64,000 nt of DNA from Eubacteriales bacterium (GTDB taxonomy: Bacteria; Bacillota; Clostridia; Christensenellales; CAG-138). The translations under genes were made by a program, and so were the position numbers. The notes under the pieces were generated by a model, which saw only the letters and a program-made list of their open reading frames with translations, did not search any database and was not told the origin of the DNA. The DNA lies in NCBI GenBank assembly GCA_034933205.1, contig JAYFNY010000012.1:10671-74670 (forward strand), read 5' to 3'. This document shows, one piece after another, positions 59,629 to 63,721 of the stretch (the stretch's first letter is position 1; every line of letters begins with the position of its first letter).

Positions 59629-61929
59629 TTACTGATTTCCCATCATCATGTCATAGTGCTGTTTCTGTTCCATTAACACAAATACAAGCCTAAAGGTTTC
59701 TTTTGTTTGGTCTACATCTACACAGTCATCTACAAAATTGATGCCGTCATTGATTCCTACAGAATTCGCACAGATGTAAGATAGCATTGCATGTGCCATT
59801 TGGTATTGTGTATAATCCTCTTTGCCGTTGGCATCTGTTGTAATGAACTTATCCTTGTTATCGATCAGAATACGCTTTCGAAGCGTCACACCGTCGTATC
59901 CGCAAAGCTGTAGAAAATAATATTCCAGTATTCGCCTAATAACATTCATCAGAGGAATCGGTGCATTAATTTCTTTATATTCCTCCCATAGAGCGGCATA
60001 CGAATTCTGTACCGGATTGTAGTTTATTTCTTCGGTCATTATTTCCGGATTGACTTTCGTGCAAAGCTTGATAGAGGACTTATTGTCAATCTTGCTGATC
60101 AAATAGAAATTCACAAACAAATAATTTTTAACCTGATTGTATGTGATTTCCCTATGAAAGTAAGCATTATGTGTCAATATAAAGATTTGTTTAATGTAAT
60201 CTGCCTTTGCGACCGGATCAACACCGATTGCGTTATTCTCGCAAATCTGAATCATCTCTCTGACTAAGGCACTCACAATAAATAAGGCACTGCTGTCCAT
60301 ACTGGACACGGGATCATCGATTACAACAATCTTATCGAGCTGGCTCCCATCTGGATTATCACTGCCCTTAACCTGATGATAAAAATACAGAAATGCTATA
60401 AAGTTTCTTTCACCCTCACTTAGATTTTCTGCAATATTTCCGTCCGGCCTAACAACCTCATATACATTTGGCGTTCCTTCTTTTTCCCGGATACTAAAGC
60501 CTTGGAAACCAGAATCTCGAAGCAGTACATTTACGCTCTCAATTGTTGCGGTTGTATTTACACAGTCTTTATTGAGCTCAGCGATTTCACGTGTGAGTGC
60601 ACCGATTGCTGTCCGCTGTGTTGAAATTTCCGTAATCAGCTTAGAGATTTCGTCCTCCAATAAGGCCTTACTGGTTTTATACCGGCTAACCTGATCAGCC
60701 AAAAGAAAAGCAAAATGTTCCCAGACAGCAGTTCTACATTCTGCTTGCTTTTTTGGTTTTGCATCGAGGACGCTATTATTTTCTTTGATGAGCGTGTTAA
60801 AACCATCAATGATATTCTCCAATTCGCTTAGCATTGATGCGACATCTTCGATTTCCACAAGCTCAGCTGGCTCATCAATTTTTTCTTTTATCTTTTGCAG
60901 GTTTGTCGAGATAACACCTTTTATGGCTGCTACTTTATCAGTGAAAGGCGTAATGTCCATGCCCGGTTTCAACACCGCAGGCGGCTTGAGCAATGGTGCT
61001 ACTATCTCATTCGCTTCATTTCTATAGGCTTCATAATAATCTGCCAAGGCCTGCTTTGCTTCCTGATAACTGGAGTCGAAGCAAGCCTTTAGATCATCTT
61101 CAAAGCTAAGCGGCATAGGCTGCTGACAATACGGGCATGTATCTTTTGCTGCCTCATGAAATTGTTTGTGGCCCTGCTGTACCCAACTGGCCGCATTTAT
61201 TTTTTTCAAGAACTGCGCAAAAGGCGTGTCTGCACTACTTACGATTCTTTTTCCGAGAATATCTCTGCCTTCAAGTTCATCCAGCGCTGCTGTATTTATA
61301 ATGGAAGGAAAAAGCTCATATTTTTTTGCGTCGTCAGAATAGGCTACAGCATAGAGGCGGTGCAAAGCTTCCACATCATGTTCTTTGGGCGTCCTTACTT
61401 CGAGTACCCCTTCTGCAAAGGATTTCTTTTGCATCCGGTTCGTTTGTGTTTTCTTGAACTCTGCTCGCAAGTTTGCGGTTTTCTCCCAACACTCCTGCTG
61501 GAACCGCTCCAATGCCTCTTGCAGCGCAGCGGCCTTTTTCGTTTTCGCTTCGCCTGCTTCTGAGAAGGCAGTTGATGCCTTTTCCTTTTGAATCTGCTTC
61601 TCATCGACCTTTGCCTGAATAGTGACATTTACCTCATTCACGGTAAACACGCCTGGAAGGTTATGATAGTTGGGAAGATTAGCACTAATGTAATCCTGAT
61701 TATAAACATGCACTTTATAATCGGATACCGAACGACCGGGCTGCCACTCCACGCCACGATCAACTTTTATCGCTTTGCCAATGGTCGATTTGCCCGTACC
61801 ATTGTTTCCAAAAAAGAAATTCACATAAGTCGGCACAATCGATACCCCGCAACCTTTGTAGGAGGCATCGTTCATGTCCAATTTTACAATTTCAGATGTC
61901 AGTTTGTCTCTCATGCTTTCACCTCCCAT
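59629..61929 (-). CDS. Coiled-coil ABC ATPase of the PrrC/RloC (AAA_13-like) type
   Basis: ABC motifs in order:
- Walker A GNNGTGKST (aa 41-49)
- ~400-aa helical insert with CPYC (aa 265-268)
- signature LSEGERNF (503)
- Walker B KIVVIDDP (533-540)
- H-loop ILTHN (584-588)

The C-terminal ~170 aa carry NVIRRILEYYF. Confidence 0.8.
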   Translation of the reverse strand: MGGESMRDKLTSEIVKLDMNDASYKGCGVSIVPTYVNFFFGNNGTGKSTIGKAIKVDRGVEWQPGRSVSDYKVHVYNQDYISANLPNYHNLPGVFTVNEVNVTIQAKVDEKQIQKEKASTAFSEAGEAKTKKAAALQEALERFQQECWEKTANLRAEFKKTQTNRMQKKSFAEGVLEVRTPKEHDVEALHRLYAVAYSDDAKKYELFPSIINTAALDELEGRDILGKRIVSSADTPFAQFLKKINAASWVQQGHKQFHEAAKDTCPYCQQPMPLSFEDDLKACFDSSYQEAKQALADYYEAYRNEANEIVAPLLKPPAVLKPGMDITPFTDKVAAIKGVISTNLQKIKEKIDEPAELVEIEDVASMLSELENIIDGFNTLIKENNSVLDAKPKKQAECRTAVWEHFAFLLADQVSRYKTSKALLEDEISKLITEISTQRTAIGALTREIAELNKDCVNTTATIESVNVLLRDSGFQGFSIREKEGTPNVYEVVRPDGNIAENLSEGERNFIAFLYFYHQVKGSDNPDGSQLDKIVVIDDPVSSMDSSALFIVSALVREMIQICENNAIGVDPVAKADYIKQIFILTHNAYFHREITYNQVKNYLFVNFYLISKIDNKSSIKLCTKVNPEIMTEEINYNPVQNSYAALWEEYKEINAPIPLMNVIRRILEYYFLQLCGYDGVTLRKRILIDNKDKFITTDANGKEDYTQYQMAHAMLSYICANSVGINDGINFVDDCVDVDQTKETFRLVFVLMEQKQHYDMMMGNQ

Positions 61930-62564
61930 CAGAAGCCAAACAGGGAAATCTTCGCATCAGCCAATTCTTCCTTTAGATTGATGTGCTTAATTGCCCAATG
62001 CGTATGATTCATTTCTGATATGCCTCTCGTCATATCTAACATGCCAAGTTCAAAACCAATATTGCTTATTTGCTGCATGGGAATGGGCCACAGTAACTGA
62101 CATCGTATTTTGACTCCGTTATCCTGCTTTCTTATTCCATCAACAAAGCCAAAGAATACTTGCTGATTTTCTCCAGCCCTTGCATGTTGAAATTCTGCCT
62201 CTGGCATGAACAGCGCTGGAAAGGTTTTCATTGCCTCAACTGCAGTCTCAGACAAAGTGCCATACCGTTCCCGAAGCTCCTCTGATGTCCAATATCTCGA
62301 TAACGCACGATCTGCTGGAACTATGAAATGATCATATTCAAAAGTCTCATCACCAATCACAAATAAATTGTAATATTCTGGATTGATGACTCGGCTGGTC
62401 GGCTGCATGGTTCCATTTGCCATTCTCTGCACATATGGAAAATTTATGTTTATATTCTGTGTTACATTTTCAGCTGTATCAATATGTACATTTTTCTCGC
62501 CATACTGATTTACTGTTTTTGCCGGTAAGCCAACACCAGCTATCGTTTGTATTTCATCTTTCAT
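61929..62564 (-). CDS. Hypothetical protein (211 aa), middle gene of the ATPase cassette
   Basis: GGAGGTG RBS. Its stop overlaps the ATPase start (TGATG). Contains VNQYGEKNVHI near the N-terminus and EMNHTHWAIKHINL near the C-terminus. No family recognised. Confidence 0.6.
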   Translation of the reverse strand: MKDEIQTIAGVGLPAKTVNQYGEKNVHIDTAENVTQNININFPYVQRMANGTMQPTSRVINPEYYNLFVIGDETFEYDHFIVPADRALSRYWTSEELRERYGTLSETAVEAMKTFPALFMPEAEFQHARAGENQQVFFGFVDGIRKQDNGVKIRCQLLWPIPMQQISNIGFELGMLDMTRGISEMNHTHWAIKHINLKEELADAKISLFGF

Positions 62565-62578
62565 AGGCTCACCTCCGC

Positions 62579-63721
62579 TCAGAGCTTCAAATTATCAACA
62601 TGTTCAATATGAACATTCTTTTCACCGTACTGATTTACAATAGTCGGATTGTTGATTATTTGAGTTCTTACACCATCTCCTGCTGCATCTGCGGCACCTG
62701 ATGATTCTTCGTCCACAGTCTCTGCTTCCACTGGCTCTGCCTCATCCTGCTTTGCCTCCTCTGGAATTGGATACAACCTTCTATATAATTCTGCCATTGC
62801 AAGCCTTAATTCATGTGATTTCGGTTGGAGAACATTTCTTAGACGGTCACCATCTTCGGCCGATTCATTTCTAAACCACAATCTATCCGTGCCAGGTATC
62901 AGACGCAAAAACTCATCAGACACATAATAGGAGTACTCTTCCATAGTTTGTGTCATATCGATTACAAGCTGACGGAAAGCGATATCCTCAATCTCGCGCA
63001 GGTCGTACTGCCACTTCCGATGCACGCTGTGCAATTCATCTGCCAGACTAATTTTTGTCTGTTGTGCTGCAGGATCGTTATCTATACAGTATTTCAAAAG
63101 TCCTTTTACATCTTTTTTGAATTGACAAAGTAATCCCTTATCTGCATCCGAAAGTAGACCCGGCTTTAATACCGGGATGCTTTTTGCTTTAGCAGTCTGT
63201 TCTTGTTCCTCCGTCAATCCATTCACAGCCCCGGCCCAGGCCTTTGCCATCGCTTCCCCAGAGGCGAGAATTTTTGCAGTCAATTTATCATGCGCGGATG
63301 TAGTCGTTTCCTCGCTTGTTTTCTTTTTGCTCGCAGCCTTTGGCTTTGCCATAGCAGCTTCATAAATAATAGAAGCAAACAACTCTGCCAGTTTCTGACT
63401 CGCATTATATGGTGTGATATTCGGAATGGCTTCTTCAAATAAACTACAGAGTCCTTGAACAGCATTATCCGGGAAAGAATCAATATATTCTTCAAACGCT
63501 GACGTCTCCACGTTGGCGTTTATTTTTTTTGCTGTTTTCGTGATGTTGTTTGTTCCATTGTAGTAGGCCTTGAAAGTCGAAGGCTTTAATTCCTGAATCG
63601 GATTCAAAGCTTCATCCTCATAAACAACGATGGTATCAAGCAGTGTGCGAGCGAAGGCACTTGTGTTACTACCGGAGCCAATCACTGAATATACGCGCTG
63701 AGCGAAGTCACAAAACACCAT
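62579..63721 (-). CDS. Hypothetical protein (380 aa), first gene of the ATPase cassette
   Basis: ATG at 63721 lies 11 nt after GGAGG. Helical N- and C-domains are joined by a Lys/Thr/Ala-rich linker, followed by an acidic tail that ends in VNQYGEKNVHIEHVDNLKL. No family recognised. Confidence 0.6.
   Translation of the reverse strand: MVFCDFAQRVYSVIGSGSNTSAFARTLLDTIVVYEDEALNPIQELKPSTFKAYYNGTNNITKTAKKINANVETSAFEEYIDSFPDNAVQGLCSLFEEAIPNITPYNASQKLAELFASIIYEAAMAKPKAASKKKTSEETTTSAHDKLTAKILASGEAMAKAWAGAVNGLTEEQEQTAKAKSIPVLKPGLLSDADKGLLCQFKKDVKGLLKYCIDNDPAAQQTKISLADELHSVHRKWQYDLREIEDIAFRQLVIDMTQTMEEYSYYVSDEFLRLIPGTDRLWFRNESAEDGDRLRNVLQPKSHELRLAMAELYRRLYPIPEEAKQDEAEPVEAETVDEESSGAADAAGDGVRTQIINNPTIVNQYGEKNVHIEHVDNLKL

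Follow-up and report, generated by a model that had tools for sequence, protein, structure and literature searches.

A 64,000-nucleotide (nt) stretch of DNA from an Eubacteriales bacterium (GCA_034933205.1, contig JAYFNY010000012.1), referred to here as the window, contains a cassette of three adjacent minus-strand genes: g1, which encodes a modular upstream protein; g2, which encodes a putative adaptor; and g3, which encodes an ABC ATPase. The tail of g1 and the head of g2 carry matching peptides that co-vary among related loci, and this pair is the main subject of the present analysis. The three genes and the parts of g1 and g2 are located in the window as follows (lengths in amino acids, aa).

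62579-63721, minus strand: g1, 380 aa from ATG (384 aa from a GTG four codons upstream)
63347-63721, minus strand: domain A of g1, aa 1-125, all-alpha, corresponding to the N-terminal half of the LmuA profile PDLC03857
62756-63169, minus strand: middle domain of g1, aa 185-322, helical, with the strongest conservation within the g1 family (...LWFRNES.EEG.QLR...)
62582-62665, minus strand: tail peptide of g1, TQIINNPTIVNQYGEKNVHIEHVDNLKL, aa 353-380, after a disordered acidic linker
61929-62564, minus strand: g2, 211 aa, head peptide and alpha/beta globular domain, putative adaptor
62439-62519, minus strand: head peptide of g2, KTVNQYGEKNVHIDTAENVTQNININF, aa 16-42, disordered in the monomer model
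61932-62387, minus strand: globular domain of g2, aa ~60-211, with conserved YYNLFV, KTFPALF, QDNGIKI, and THWAIK
59629-61914, minus strand: g3, 761 aa, AAA_13/PDC-S06 ABC ATPase with a coiled-coil insert (alternative start at 61929, giving 766 aa)

The open reading frame (ORF) map of the window confirmed the three genes at the places given by the first-pass annotation, a description made earlier from the sequence alone. Their lengths had been given as 380, 211, and 766 aa, the last of which corresponds to the longer g3 start. The spacer between g1 and g2 is 14 nt long (gcGGAGGTGagcct) and includes GGAGGTG, as had been described, and GGAGGTG is also found 9 nt ahead of the g1 ATG. The same annotation had proposed that g2 and g3 are coupled through a TGATG overlap. 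The overlap is present, but it holds a second GGAGGTG, 6 nt before a second ATG (MRDKL..., nt 61914). Since most gene callers choose this second ATG (761 aa) and all homologs align from its Met, g3 most likely has 761 aa and follows a second 14-nt GGAGGTG spacer instead of beginning at the overlap.

g1 ends with ...NNPTIVNQYGEKNVHIEHVDNLKL and g2 begins with ...AKTVNQYGEKNVHIDTAENVTQNI; the core common to both is VNQYGEKNVHI. The two copies of this core are identical in 11/11 aa and 28/33 nt, and all five nucleotide differences are synonymous. In the 64-kb window, the motif occurs twice only, at the g1 tail and the g2 head. Because the differences between the copies are all synonymous, the identical protein core indicates selection on the peptides and not a recent conversion. 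The matching, co-varying termini had not been noticed in the first-pass annotation, which reported no recognizable motif in g1 or g2. That statement holds in that neither protein belongs to a Pfam or NCBIfam family, but not for the 11-residue peptide common to both or for the N-terminal domain of g1, which matches LmuA. Similar pairs of tail and head are found in other loci (numbered L001 and onward here), as the following examples illustrate.

L043: tail of the upstream protein NQRAEKIVNIEHVDHL, head of g2 NQQAEKIVNVNRADSI
L050: tail of the upstream protein NQYGNNGTQIGHVENYY, head of g2 NQYGNDSTQIAYVQHYD
L140: tail of the upstream protein ISGGNNSFYQHVD, head of g2 VSGGNNSFIAHAD
L111: tail of the upstream protein SKTFNIEHSNITFNL, head of g2 SNNFNINNSTVTFNV
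Streptococcus phage Javan105: tail of the upstream protein FIFNQSGSGVNIGQATNV, head of g2 YKFEQSGQGTNIGLAQNV

The partners change in concert in some loci; in L043 and L075, for example, Gly is replaced by Ala on both sides. When the pairing was permuted among 26 dereplicated loci, the cognate sum was 1451 versus 911±55, and none of 20,000 shuffles reached it; among 41 dereplicated loci, the sum was 2253 versus 1388±67 (z = 12.9), and these permutation figures are inflated by shared ancestry, since related gut prophages contributed many of the loci. Shared ancestry does not affect how closely a tail resembles the head of its own locus. Compared against a shuffled copy of the head, each tail resembles its own head with a median z of 7.8. 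The rule also extends to upstream proteins that are unrelated to g1 and carry another N-terminal module (domain B, below), to a Streptococcus phage, and to a genuine Lamassu locus. In the one class of g1 proteins that is linked to a helicase, the tail is globular without the peptide, and the partner likewise lacks the head peptide. On these grounds, it is very likely that the peptides specifically link g1 to g2.

Two other accounts of the repeat were ruled out. Gene conversion or duplication as the source of the peptides does not fit differences that are all synonymous, nor the similar but non-identical pairs of most loci. A role of the repeat in RNA or DNA was ruled out on the same synonymous and non-identical grounds, and the copies are direct, not inverted, repeats.

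The peptides are ~25 residues long and adjoin linkers that are disordered in the AlphaFold2 (AF2) models; one forms the very end of g1, and the other lies close to the start of g2. The motif is anchored on a Gly conserved in >90% of the sequences and can be written as φ-φ-[NQ]-Q-x-G-[EDN]-[KN]-N-φ-[HNQ]-φ-x-[HN]-φ-[DEG]-x-φ-N-φ. Asn, Gln, Gly, Ser, and Thr make up 47% of the residues (Asn 18%), Pro accounts for 1.3%, the charge is low, and hydrophobic residues alternate. Tail and head share a mean identity of 40%, reaching 100% in some pairs. Since in-register stacking needs likeness of the partners and an ordinary complementary interface does not, an in-register cross-β arrangement is favored, and the peptide pair is probably cross-β (amyloid-like). 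The resemblance to the described amyloid motif families is loose and confined to the Q-x-G core.

g1 itself is modular. Its AF2 model (mean predicted local distance difference test score, pLDDT, 75) contains two confident helical domains (pLDDT ~90), disordered linkers between them, and an unstructured C-terminus. Domain A matches the PADLOC LmuA profile PDLC03857 at positions 1-148 of 327 (E = 2.3e-22). Scans of NCBIfam and PHROGs left g1 without a functional name, and a fold search of the model against PDB returned nothing significant (best E = 0.31). Among the BFVD viral structures, only uncharacterized siphovirus homologs were found. More numerous than the g2 family, the g1 family always comes first in its prophage slot, and the cargo that follows it varies among g2 with the AAA_13 ATPase, a superfamily 1 (SF1) helicase of the PADLOC candidate PDC-S53, and, in sister prophages, a genuine Lamassu set. 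g1 is thus not a dedicated partner of this ATPase, a point on which the first-pass annotation needs correction.

The N-terminus of g1-type upstream proteins is found in two unrelated forms, domain A, as in the window, and domain B. The latter is a ~230-aa module with a hydrophobic start, PxLCGGxFFxLLLQARK (KD19 up to 1.66). Window g1 and the class-B g1 of L015 match across the middle domain and the tail (E = 5.5e-74). Most of the upstream proteins linked to g2 consist of domain B and the tail only; these ~310-aa proteins are unrelated to g1, with a negative profile-profile comparison. From its place in the architecture and its match to the LmuA profile, g1 may be regarded as a putative effector. 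A membrane-directed role of this effector, suggested by the hydrophobic N-terminus of domain B, is only a guess. The idea of g1 as a membrane protein stays speculative: no segment has a convincing transmembrane score, and the domain B N-terminus is the only hydrophobic part.

Domain A was also considered as a relative of HamA/DUF1837 and rejected, since the matches are too weak (aa 52-163, E = 2.7e-4) and the predicted all-alpha fold is incompatible. Faint matches of this kind recur in the otherwise unrelated domain B (E = 9.3e-3; L009:7111-7986). In L013 (L013:7001-11194) and L014, the direct partner of a g1-family protein is a 933-aa SF1 helicase matching PDC-S53 (E = 0). This g1 protein is composed of domain A, the middle domain, and a ~110-aa globular tail ending in FPYDAFIDDWNDGEY. 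The pair is Hachiman-like, and the "single-gene" candidate PDC-S53 may be a two-gene system. Hachiman consists of HamA (DUF1837) and HamB; the faint matches of domains A and B and the helicase-paired g1 class recall it. The matches, however, are far below the significance needed for membership, the model of domain A is all-alpha, unlike a PD-(D/E)xK fold, and the helicase is SF1 and not HamB-like.

Fused and split versions of these proteins place the peptide pair in context. The LmuA profile PDLC03857 has 327 positions. Positions 1-148 match domain A, both in the window and in L013 (E = 2.4e-16), and positions 137-327 match a separate CTD6 protein of L015 (E = 3.3e-66). Because the two halves of the profile match g1 domain A and the L015 CTD6 protein, canonical LmuA of the PDLC03857 type is, as judged from these profile matches, domain A fused to CTD6. 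In L015-17, a Lamassu system has its LmuA split at this point: the g1-type protein ends with ...NVVQNGDNNINLTNNGTINF, and the CTD6 protein starts with ...VQQTGQNNINVTNQSGGNITF. Pfam and PADLOC confirm the L015 set, with the CTD6 protein, MC2 as LmuC (1.8e-55), and LmuB (4.8e-228).

Single chains that join the effector domains directly to the g2 domain are also found. Domain B is fused to the g2 domain in P0216, P0218, P0260, and P0306, and domain A in P0266. The g2 domain is further fused to an NB-ARC STAND NTPase (P0288, E = 2.8e-5, a remote relative), DUF6650, or leucine-rich repeats. A g2 domain that lacks the head peptide is joined to a CAP12/Pycsar TIR effector domain (PF10137, E = 2.9e-36) in Methylobacterium (L062:5998-7344). 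Since fused forms exist, the g2 domain can be read as a coupling module, and the peptide pair appears to stand in for the covalent link of the fused proteins. By analogy, the g2 globular domain behaves as an effector-coupling module, a counterpart of the C-terminal domain (CTD) of the LmuA effector. As a separate observation, the TIR and NB-ARC fusions link the g2 module to TIR and NLR-type immunity (L062, P0288).

g2 belongs to no family in Pfam, PADLOC, NCBIfam, or PHROG. An exhaustive profile search collected 842 representative g2-domain proteins or clusters. The AF2 model of g2 is weak (pLDDT 55), with an alpha/beta globular part and the first 37 residues disordered; a fold search against PDB gave no match, the model being too weak to interpret. 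No match was found to the LmuC or middle component (MC) models of PADLOC and Pfam. A weak CTD1 match (E = 0.0056) was seen in one of 20 g2 relatives. The profile-profile comparison of the g2 domain with CTD6 was negative, so that nothing beyond the peptide connects g2 to CTD6.

The cassette is conserved as a unit. A g3-type gene follows g2 in ~33 of the 43 loci found with a g2 profile; these loci are mostly from Clostridia, with Streptococcus phages and a few from other phyla. With a g3 profile, 71 loci with enough upstream DNA were found, and a g2 homolog lies 0-304 nt upstream of g3 in 65 of them. The three genes are kept at 42-86% identity while their neighbors change, and divergent homologs (42-60% identity) retain the order of upstream protein, g2, and AAA_13 ATPase. 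The downstream DNA varies among loci and includes BREX-3, McrBC with methylases, an MspI restriction-modification (R-M) system, AbiEii, and HicB. The first-pass annotation had proposed a three-gene cassette whose genes should co-occur in other genomes; the changing neighbors and the co-occurrence of g2 and g3 support a conserved, autonomous cassette. Exact copies of g2 are always found in one and the same prophage context, and a search of E. coli genomes for near matches of the cassette found none.

Not all partners of g2 are ABC ATPases. In L035 (L035:6933-10166) and L036, a domain-B protein and g2, whose tail and head match, stand ahead of a 1077-aa SNF2 helicase, which is of the PADLOC type C3a139 (HKD+Snf2; E = 9.9e-121). 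From these loci, the adaptor g2 would serve at least two classes of NTPase. Six ATPases of the g3 clade lack g2 (L102, L100, L108, L123, L125, and L126). In L102 (L102:14-5786), the upstream genes instead encode a 441-aa DUF2130 protein and a protein of 715 aa that contains a restriction-endonuclease domain, an arrangement nearer to the classical association of RloC with R-M systems.

The ATPase g3 matches the Pfam family AAA_13 over its full length (E = 1.3e-122), a match the first-pass annotation had anticipated, as well as the PADLOC candidate PDC-S06 (PDLC04890; E = 2.5e-208), also over its full length. The motifs, in the 761-aa numbering used throughout for g3, are Walker A (G36-K42), the signature (S499-E-G-E502), Walker B (D533-D534), and the H-loop (H582). 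Walker A, the signature, Walker B/D-loop, and the linchpin His are invariant in 15 relatives of g3 with 41-68% identity. Two further features, together with these motifs, were all found as described earlier from the sequence:

61126-61137, minus strand: CPYC, C260-C263, a Rad50/RloC-like zinc-hook motif at the center of a ~400-aa insert, invariant in 15/15 relatives
59632-60147, minus strand: C-terminal domain of g3, aa ~590-761, ~170 aa, with invariant N657, R660, E664, Q750, Q752, and H753

CPYC is also present in the g3 counterparts of the phages NatCom_9287 and Javan105. No solved structure was found for g3 by sequence search. The literature treats PDC-S06 solely as a computational prediction, and it is catalogued as a single-gene candidate, in agreement with the earlier view of the cassette as an uncharacterized candidate system; here, the full-length PDC-S06 match is the third gene of a conserved cassette.

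With these elements, the following mechanism can be proposed. g1 and g2 would be two halves of what in related proteins is one polypeptide, joined non-covalently by homotypic peptides rich in Gln, Asn, and Gly. g3, a Rad50/RloC-like ABC ATPase whose coiled coil bears a zinc hook, would be the sensor and, in the resting state, would sequester g2. On sensing phage DNA or replication intermediates, g3 might release or cluster g2. The gathered g2 head peptides would then nucleate an in-register cross-β (amyloid-like) fold, which could recruit and template the g1 tails. Oligomerization of g1 would in turn switch on the domain A or domain B effector. This scheme for signaling from g3 through g2 to g1 follows an analogy with Lamassu, in which LmuB2-LmuC sequesters the C-terminal oligomerization domain of LmuA, and activation frees LmuA to form an active oligomer. 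We infer that the cassette is an anti-phage system, probably acting by abortive infection. The overall reading, a prophage-borne variant of ABC-3C/Lamassu logic in which the peptide pair couples effector to adaptor by templated oligomerization, is given a probability of roughly 0.5. The hybrid layout recognized in the first-pass annotation, an RloC-like ATPase within the ABC-3C/Lamassu order of effector, middle protein, and ATPase, is borne out.

Several points weigh against this reading. The permutation figures are affected by common descent, as noted above. g1 has no recognizable toxic domain, PDB analog, or clear transmembrane segment, and a small adaptor attached to an ABC ATPase, not a multimeric NLR, would have to provide the nucleating platform. 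At E ≤ 0.1, g1, g2, and 20 g2 relatives gave no match to the Pfam amyloid families RHIM, HET-s, and Ses_B. AF2 leaves the peptides unstructured (g2 pLDDT 55), which neither supports nor contradicts a cross-β fold. Window g3 has R-X3-E-X43-H, so that g3 itself might be an active tRNase and the true effector. No link between Lamassu and amyloid signaling was found in the literature, of which the ABC-3C-defining paper of Krishnan et al. (2020) was not covered and could hold a prior description of these peptides. A 2025 paper on the detection of amyloid signaling motifs does not mention ATPase or Firmicute contexts.

Amyloid signaling pairs are known from fungi (HET-S/NWD2) and from bacteria, where NLR/Bell pairs carry the motifs BASS1-10 and the E. 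coli Bab/Agp pair carries BASS11. The NLR/Bell pairs exhibit an "all-in-one versus two-component" duality, and Bab/Agp is the sole anti-phage system in which amyloid signaling has been shown experimentally. The peptides of the cassette resemble these pairs in several ways. One protein carries the motif C-terminally and the product of the neighboring gene carries it N-terminally, and the partners are alike and co-vary, the loci being related. The sequences are rich in Gln, Asn, and Gly, have alternating hydrophobic residues, and adjoin disordered linkers. Two-component and all-in-one forms coexist, and the setting is a prophage defense island. In contrast, the partners here are adaptors of ABC (AAA_13, Lamassu) and SNF2 NTPases and not NLR/STAND or TPR-GreA/B-PIN proteins, and g1, which carries the C-terminal motif, is not a Bell or HeLo domain. 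The hosts are unicellular Clostridia, Bacilli, and their phages, as opposed to filamentous Actinobacteria or Cyanobacteria. In the Pfam comparison given above, the peptides match none of the motif families described so far (RHIM/BASS3/PP, HET-s, and sigma). It is tentatively suggested, at somewhat less than even odds, that a new amyloid-like peptide family wires effectors to adaptors of ABC/SMC-class (AAA_13, Lamassu) and SNF2 NTPases in unicellular Firmicutes and temperate phages.

Much of this evidence could also be produced by a constitutive tether. The peptides would then form a stable β-zipper or β-hairpin heterodimer that holds the split halves together without templating, and activation would occur elsewhere, for instance by release of g1-g2 from g3. 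The co-variation, the fused forms, and the split LmuA fit such a tether equally well, and it is consistent with the missing match to known amyloid motif families. A heterodimer, however, needs complementarity, whereas the partners here stay alike and change in concert, and the composition of the peptides and their place behind long disordered linkers are those of signaling amyloid motifs. A pure tether is rather unlikely on this balance, although it deserves serious weight.

The roles could instead be reversed, with g3 acting as an RloC-type anticodon nuclease and effector. g1 and g2 would then be a sensor and regulator, signaling from g1 through g2 to g3, or an inhibitor pair, in the way EcoprrI masks PrrC. 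g3 shares with RloC the ABC motifs, a long helical insert with a central CXXC, and an extra C-terminal domain, and the N-terminal domains of g1 are variable, as those of sensors would be. Annotation pipelines name g3 accordingly, and some sources label g3-type proteins "wobble nucleotide-excising tRNase/RloC". The published definition of RloC requires, besides the ABC head and CXXC hook, a C-domain with Arg-X3-Glu-X36-52-His, often with Ser before the His. R660-X3-E664 is invariant in the g3 clade, and window g3 has a His at X43 (H708), inside the range. Among the 15 diverse clade members aligned, this His is found in window g3 only; the other 14 have Ser, Ala, Glu, or Asn in its place. The only invariant His of the clade's C-domain is at +88-91, beyond the published range. 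Because the in-range His is confined to the window protein, the automatic RloC tRNase label is not secured for g3. The first-pass annotation had seen in this domain a PrrC-like module; the R-X3-E part stands, but an active nuclease is doubtful.

Other observations also speak against a nuclease as the effector. The PADLOC PrrC match on g3 is confined to residues 504-617 of the ABC region, and the same g1 and g2 modules serve SNF2 helicases, NB-ARC proteins, and Lamassu, all without such a nuclease. In the known systems, the partner with the C-terminal motif is the effector. RloC and PrrC act as single genes, whereas g2 precedes the ATPase in nearly all g3 loci. PrrC, moreover, has a short ABC N-domain without a coiled coil and resides within type I R-M (hsd) loci, whereas g3 has the ~400-aa insert and neighbors g1/g2, a helix-turn-helix (HTH) gene, and BREX-3. 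An RloC-type effector role for g3 is unlikely.

A plain type II Lamassu system (LmuA-LmuC-LmuB) that current models under-detect would have the same gene order of effector, small middle protein, and coiled-coil ABC ATPase in three co-oriented genes conserved together. The LmuA match of domain A is in line with this, as is a weak match of g3 to LmuB (PDLC03859; E = 4.3e-15), and the corresponding slot of sister prophages holds a true LmuA/C/B set behind a member of the g1 family. The true LmuB of L015, however, scores 4.8e-228 with that profile, and g3 is an AAA_13/PDC-S06 protein with a C-terminal domain that LmuB lacks. g2 has no match to LmuC/MC or CTD models, and g1, which lacks the CTD half of LmuA, is a separate effector joined by matching peptides instead of a fused CTD. 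It had been considered earlier that both small proteins might prove to be LmuA and LmuC; this applies only to the N-terminal half of LmuA in g1 and to nothing in g2. A plain Lamassu is accordingly improbable. Release and oligomerization of the LmuA CTD give a natural trigger for the peptide pair in the preferred reading, templated coupling of effector to adaptor. Finally, g1 could be an unrelated prophage early gene at the flank of a recombination hotspot and the peptide a scar of cassette exchange or gene conversion, which the conserved flanks of the slot (the front of g1 on one side of a variable interior, the terminal HTH gene on the other) would suit, but copies that differ at synonymous sites only, tails and heads that are mostly similar rather than identical and yet co-vary, tails on unrelated domain-B proteins, single-chain fusions of the same domains, and the helicase-linked g1 class with no peptide on either partner make this extremely improbable.

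From the comparison of sequences and gene orders, the cassette appears to combine known kinds of elements: ABC-3C/Lamassu logic, an RloC-like AAA_13 sensor, and peptide coupling that resembles amyloid signaling. In this clade, the widespread "single-gene" candidate PDC-S06, often labeled RloC automatically, would act as the sensor in a system of three components whose effectors can be exchanged. Effector and adaptor are joined either by fusion or by ~25-residue self-similar peptides that can move between unrelated proteins, and such a portable pair would explain how prophages shuffle effectors and sensors in one hotspot. If cross-β templating is correct, amyloid signaling also operates in gut Firmicutes and in systems of the ABC/SMC and helicase types, and templated aggregation, instead of being peculiar to NLR-type receptors, would serve bacterial immunity generally as a portable connector. 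Lamassu effectors could then be delivered in trans. Another possible use of the peptide pairs is as orthogonal tags for coupling proteins. The sequences are short and readily testable, and nature supplies many pairs, both cognate and non-cognate, together with fused controls and a split Lamassu.

The cassette lies in a low-GC island (0.40-0.45 versus 0.51-0.53). The first-pass annotation had described AT-rich accessory DNA with BREX-3 directly downstream, and both were confirmed; the region is the early part of a prophage. The elements that surround the three genes are as follows.

63868-63896, minus strand: promoter-like site TAGAAA-17-TGcTATAAT with an extended -10 (10/12 matches plus TG; consensus match only)
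59405-59617, minus strand: 70-aa HTH_26 gene that closes the cassette (PF13443, E = 4.2e-19)
47365-59374, minus strand: BREX-3 set (BrxF, split BrxC, PglXI, BrxHI/II, PglZ, and BrxA), downstream of the cassette

The promoter-like site, ~150 nt upstream of g1, is the best in the region, in which the number of such sites is not above that of shuffled sequences. A near-identical HTH_26 protein of 67-70 aa (MRISYNKLWKMLIDK...) ends every type of cassette in the slot, whether AAA_13, PDC-S53 helicase, or Lamassu (L007:3863-4069, L013:11211-11414, L015:11388-11591, and L145:7418-7621). Because near-identical genes end every cassette type, the HTH_26 gene is a candidate hotspot or regulatory gene not specific to the trio, and it may be the regulator of the slot. 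It matches VanU NF000090 with 88.7 bits, below the cutoff of 150. Where a gap of ~270-300 nt separates g2 from the NTPase gene, it encodes a conserved 66-aa HTH_17/excisionase-like protein (PF12728, E = 1.7e-14), as in L031:6676-6876, L035:6706-6906, L050:6616-6816, and L146:5152-5346; in phage Javan105, this protein is annotated as "VrlI-like". The phage genomes NatCom_9287 and Streptococcus phage Javan105 carry the same arrangement adjoining the replication module. Since complete phages carry the arrangement at this place, the slot is, on the evidence of gene order, a prophage early-region defense hotspot.

Within the BREX-3 set, BrxC is split (53789-58964, minus strand) into a 999-aa ORF that corresponds to positions 1-953 of PDLC02482 and a 276-aa ORF that corresponds to positions 972-1231. 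The two parts are separated by a co-oriented gene for a 414-aa CLC voltage-gated chloride channel (54660-55904, PF00654), and L001-L006 show the same arrangement. The channel gene may be embedded in BrxC, or BrxC may have been disrupted. PglXI is a single intact ORF in the window (51291-53786, 831 aa) and is called in two pieces of 575 and 248 aa or 368 and 442 aa in near-identical sister loci (L002:18779-20636, L003:18487-20344, and L005:12379-14236), which suggests that the BREX methylase is frameshifted or phase-variable. Another candidate defense gene stands at the island's far end, a 327-aa ORF (45959-46942, minus strand) that matches the PADLOC candidate PDC-S05 (E = 3.7e-177).

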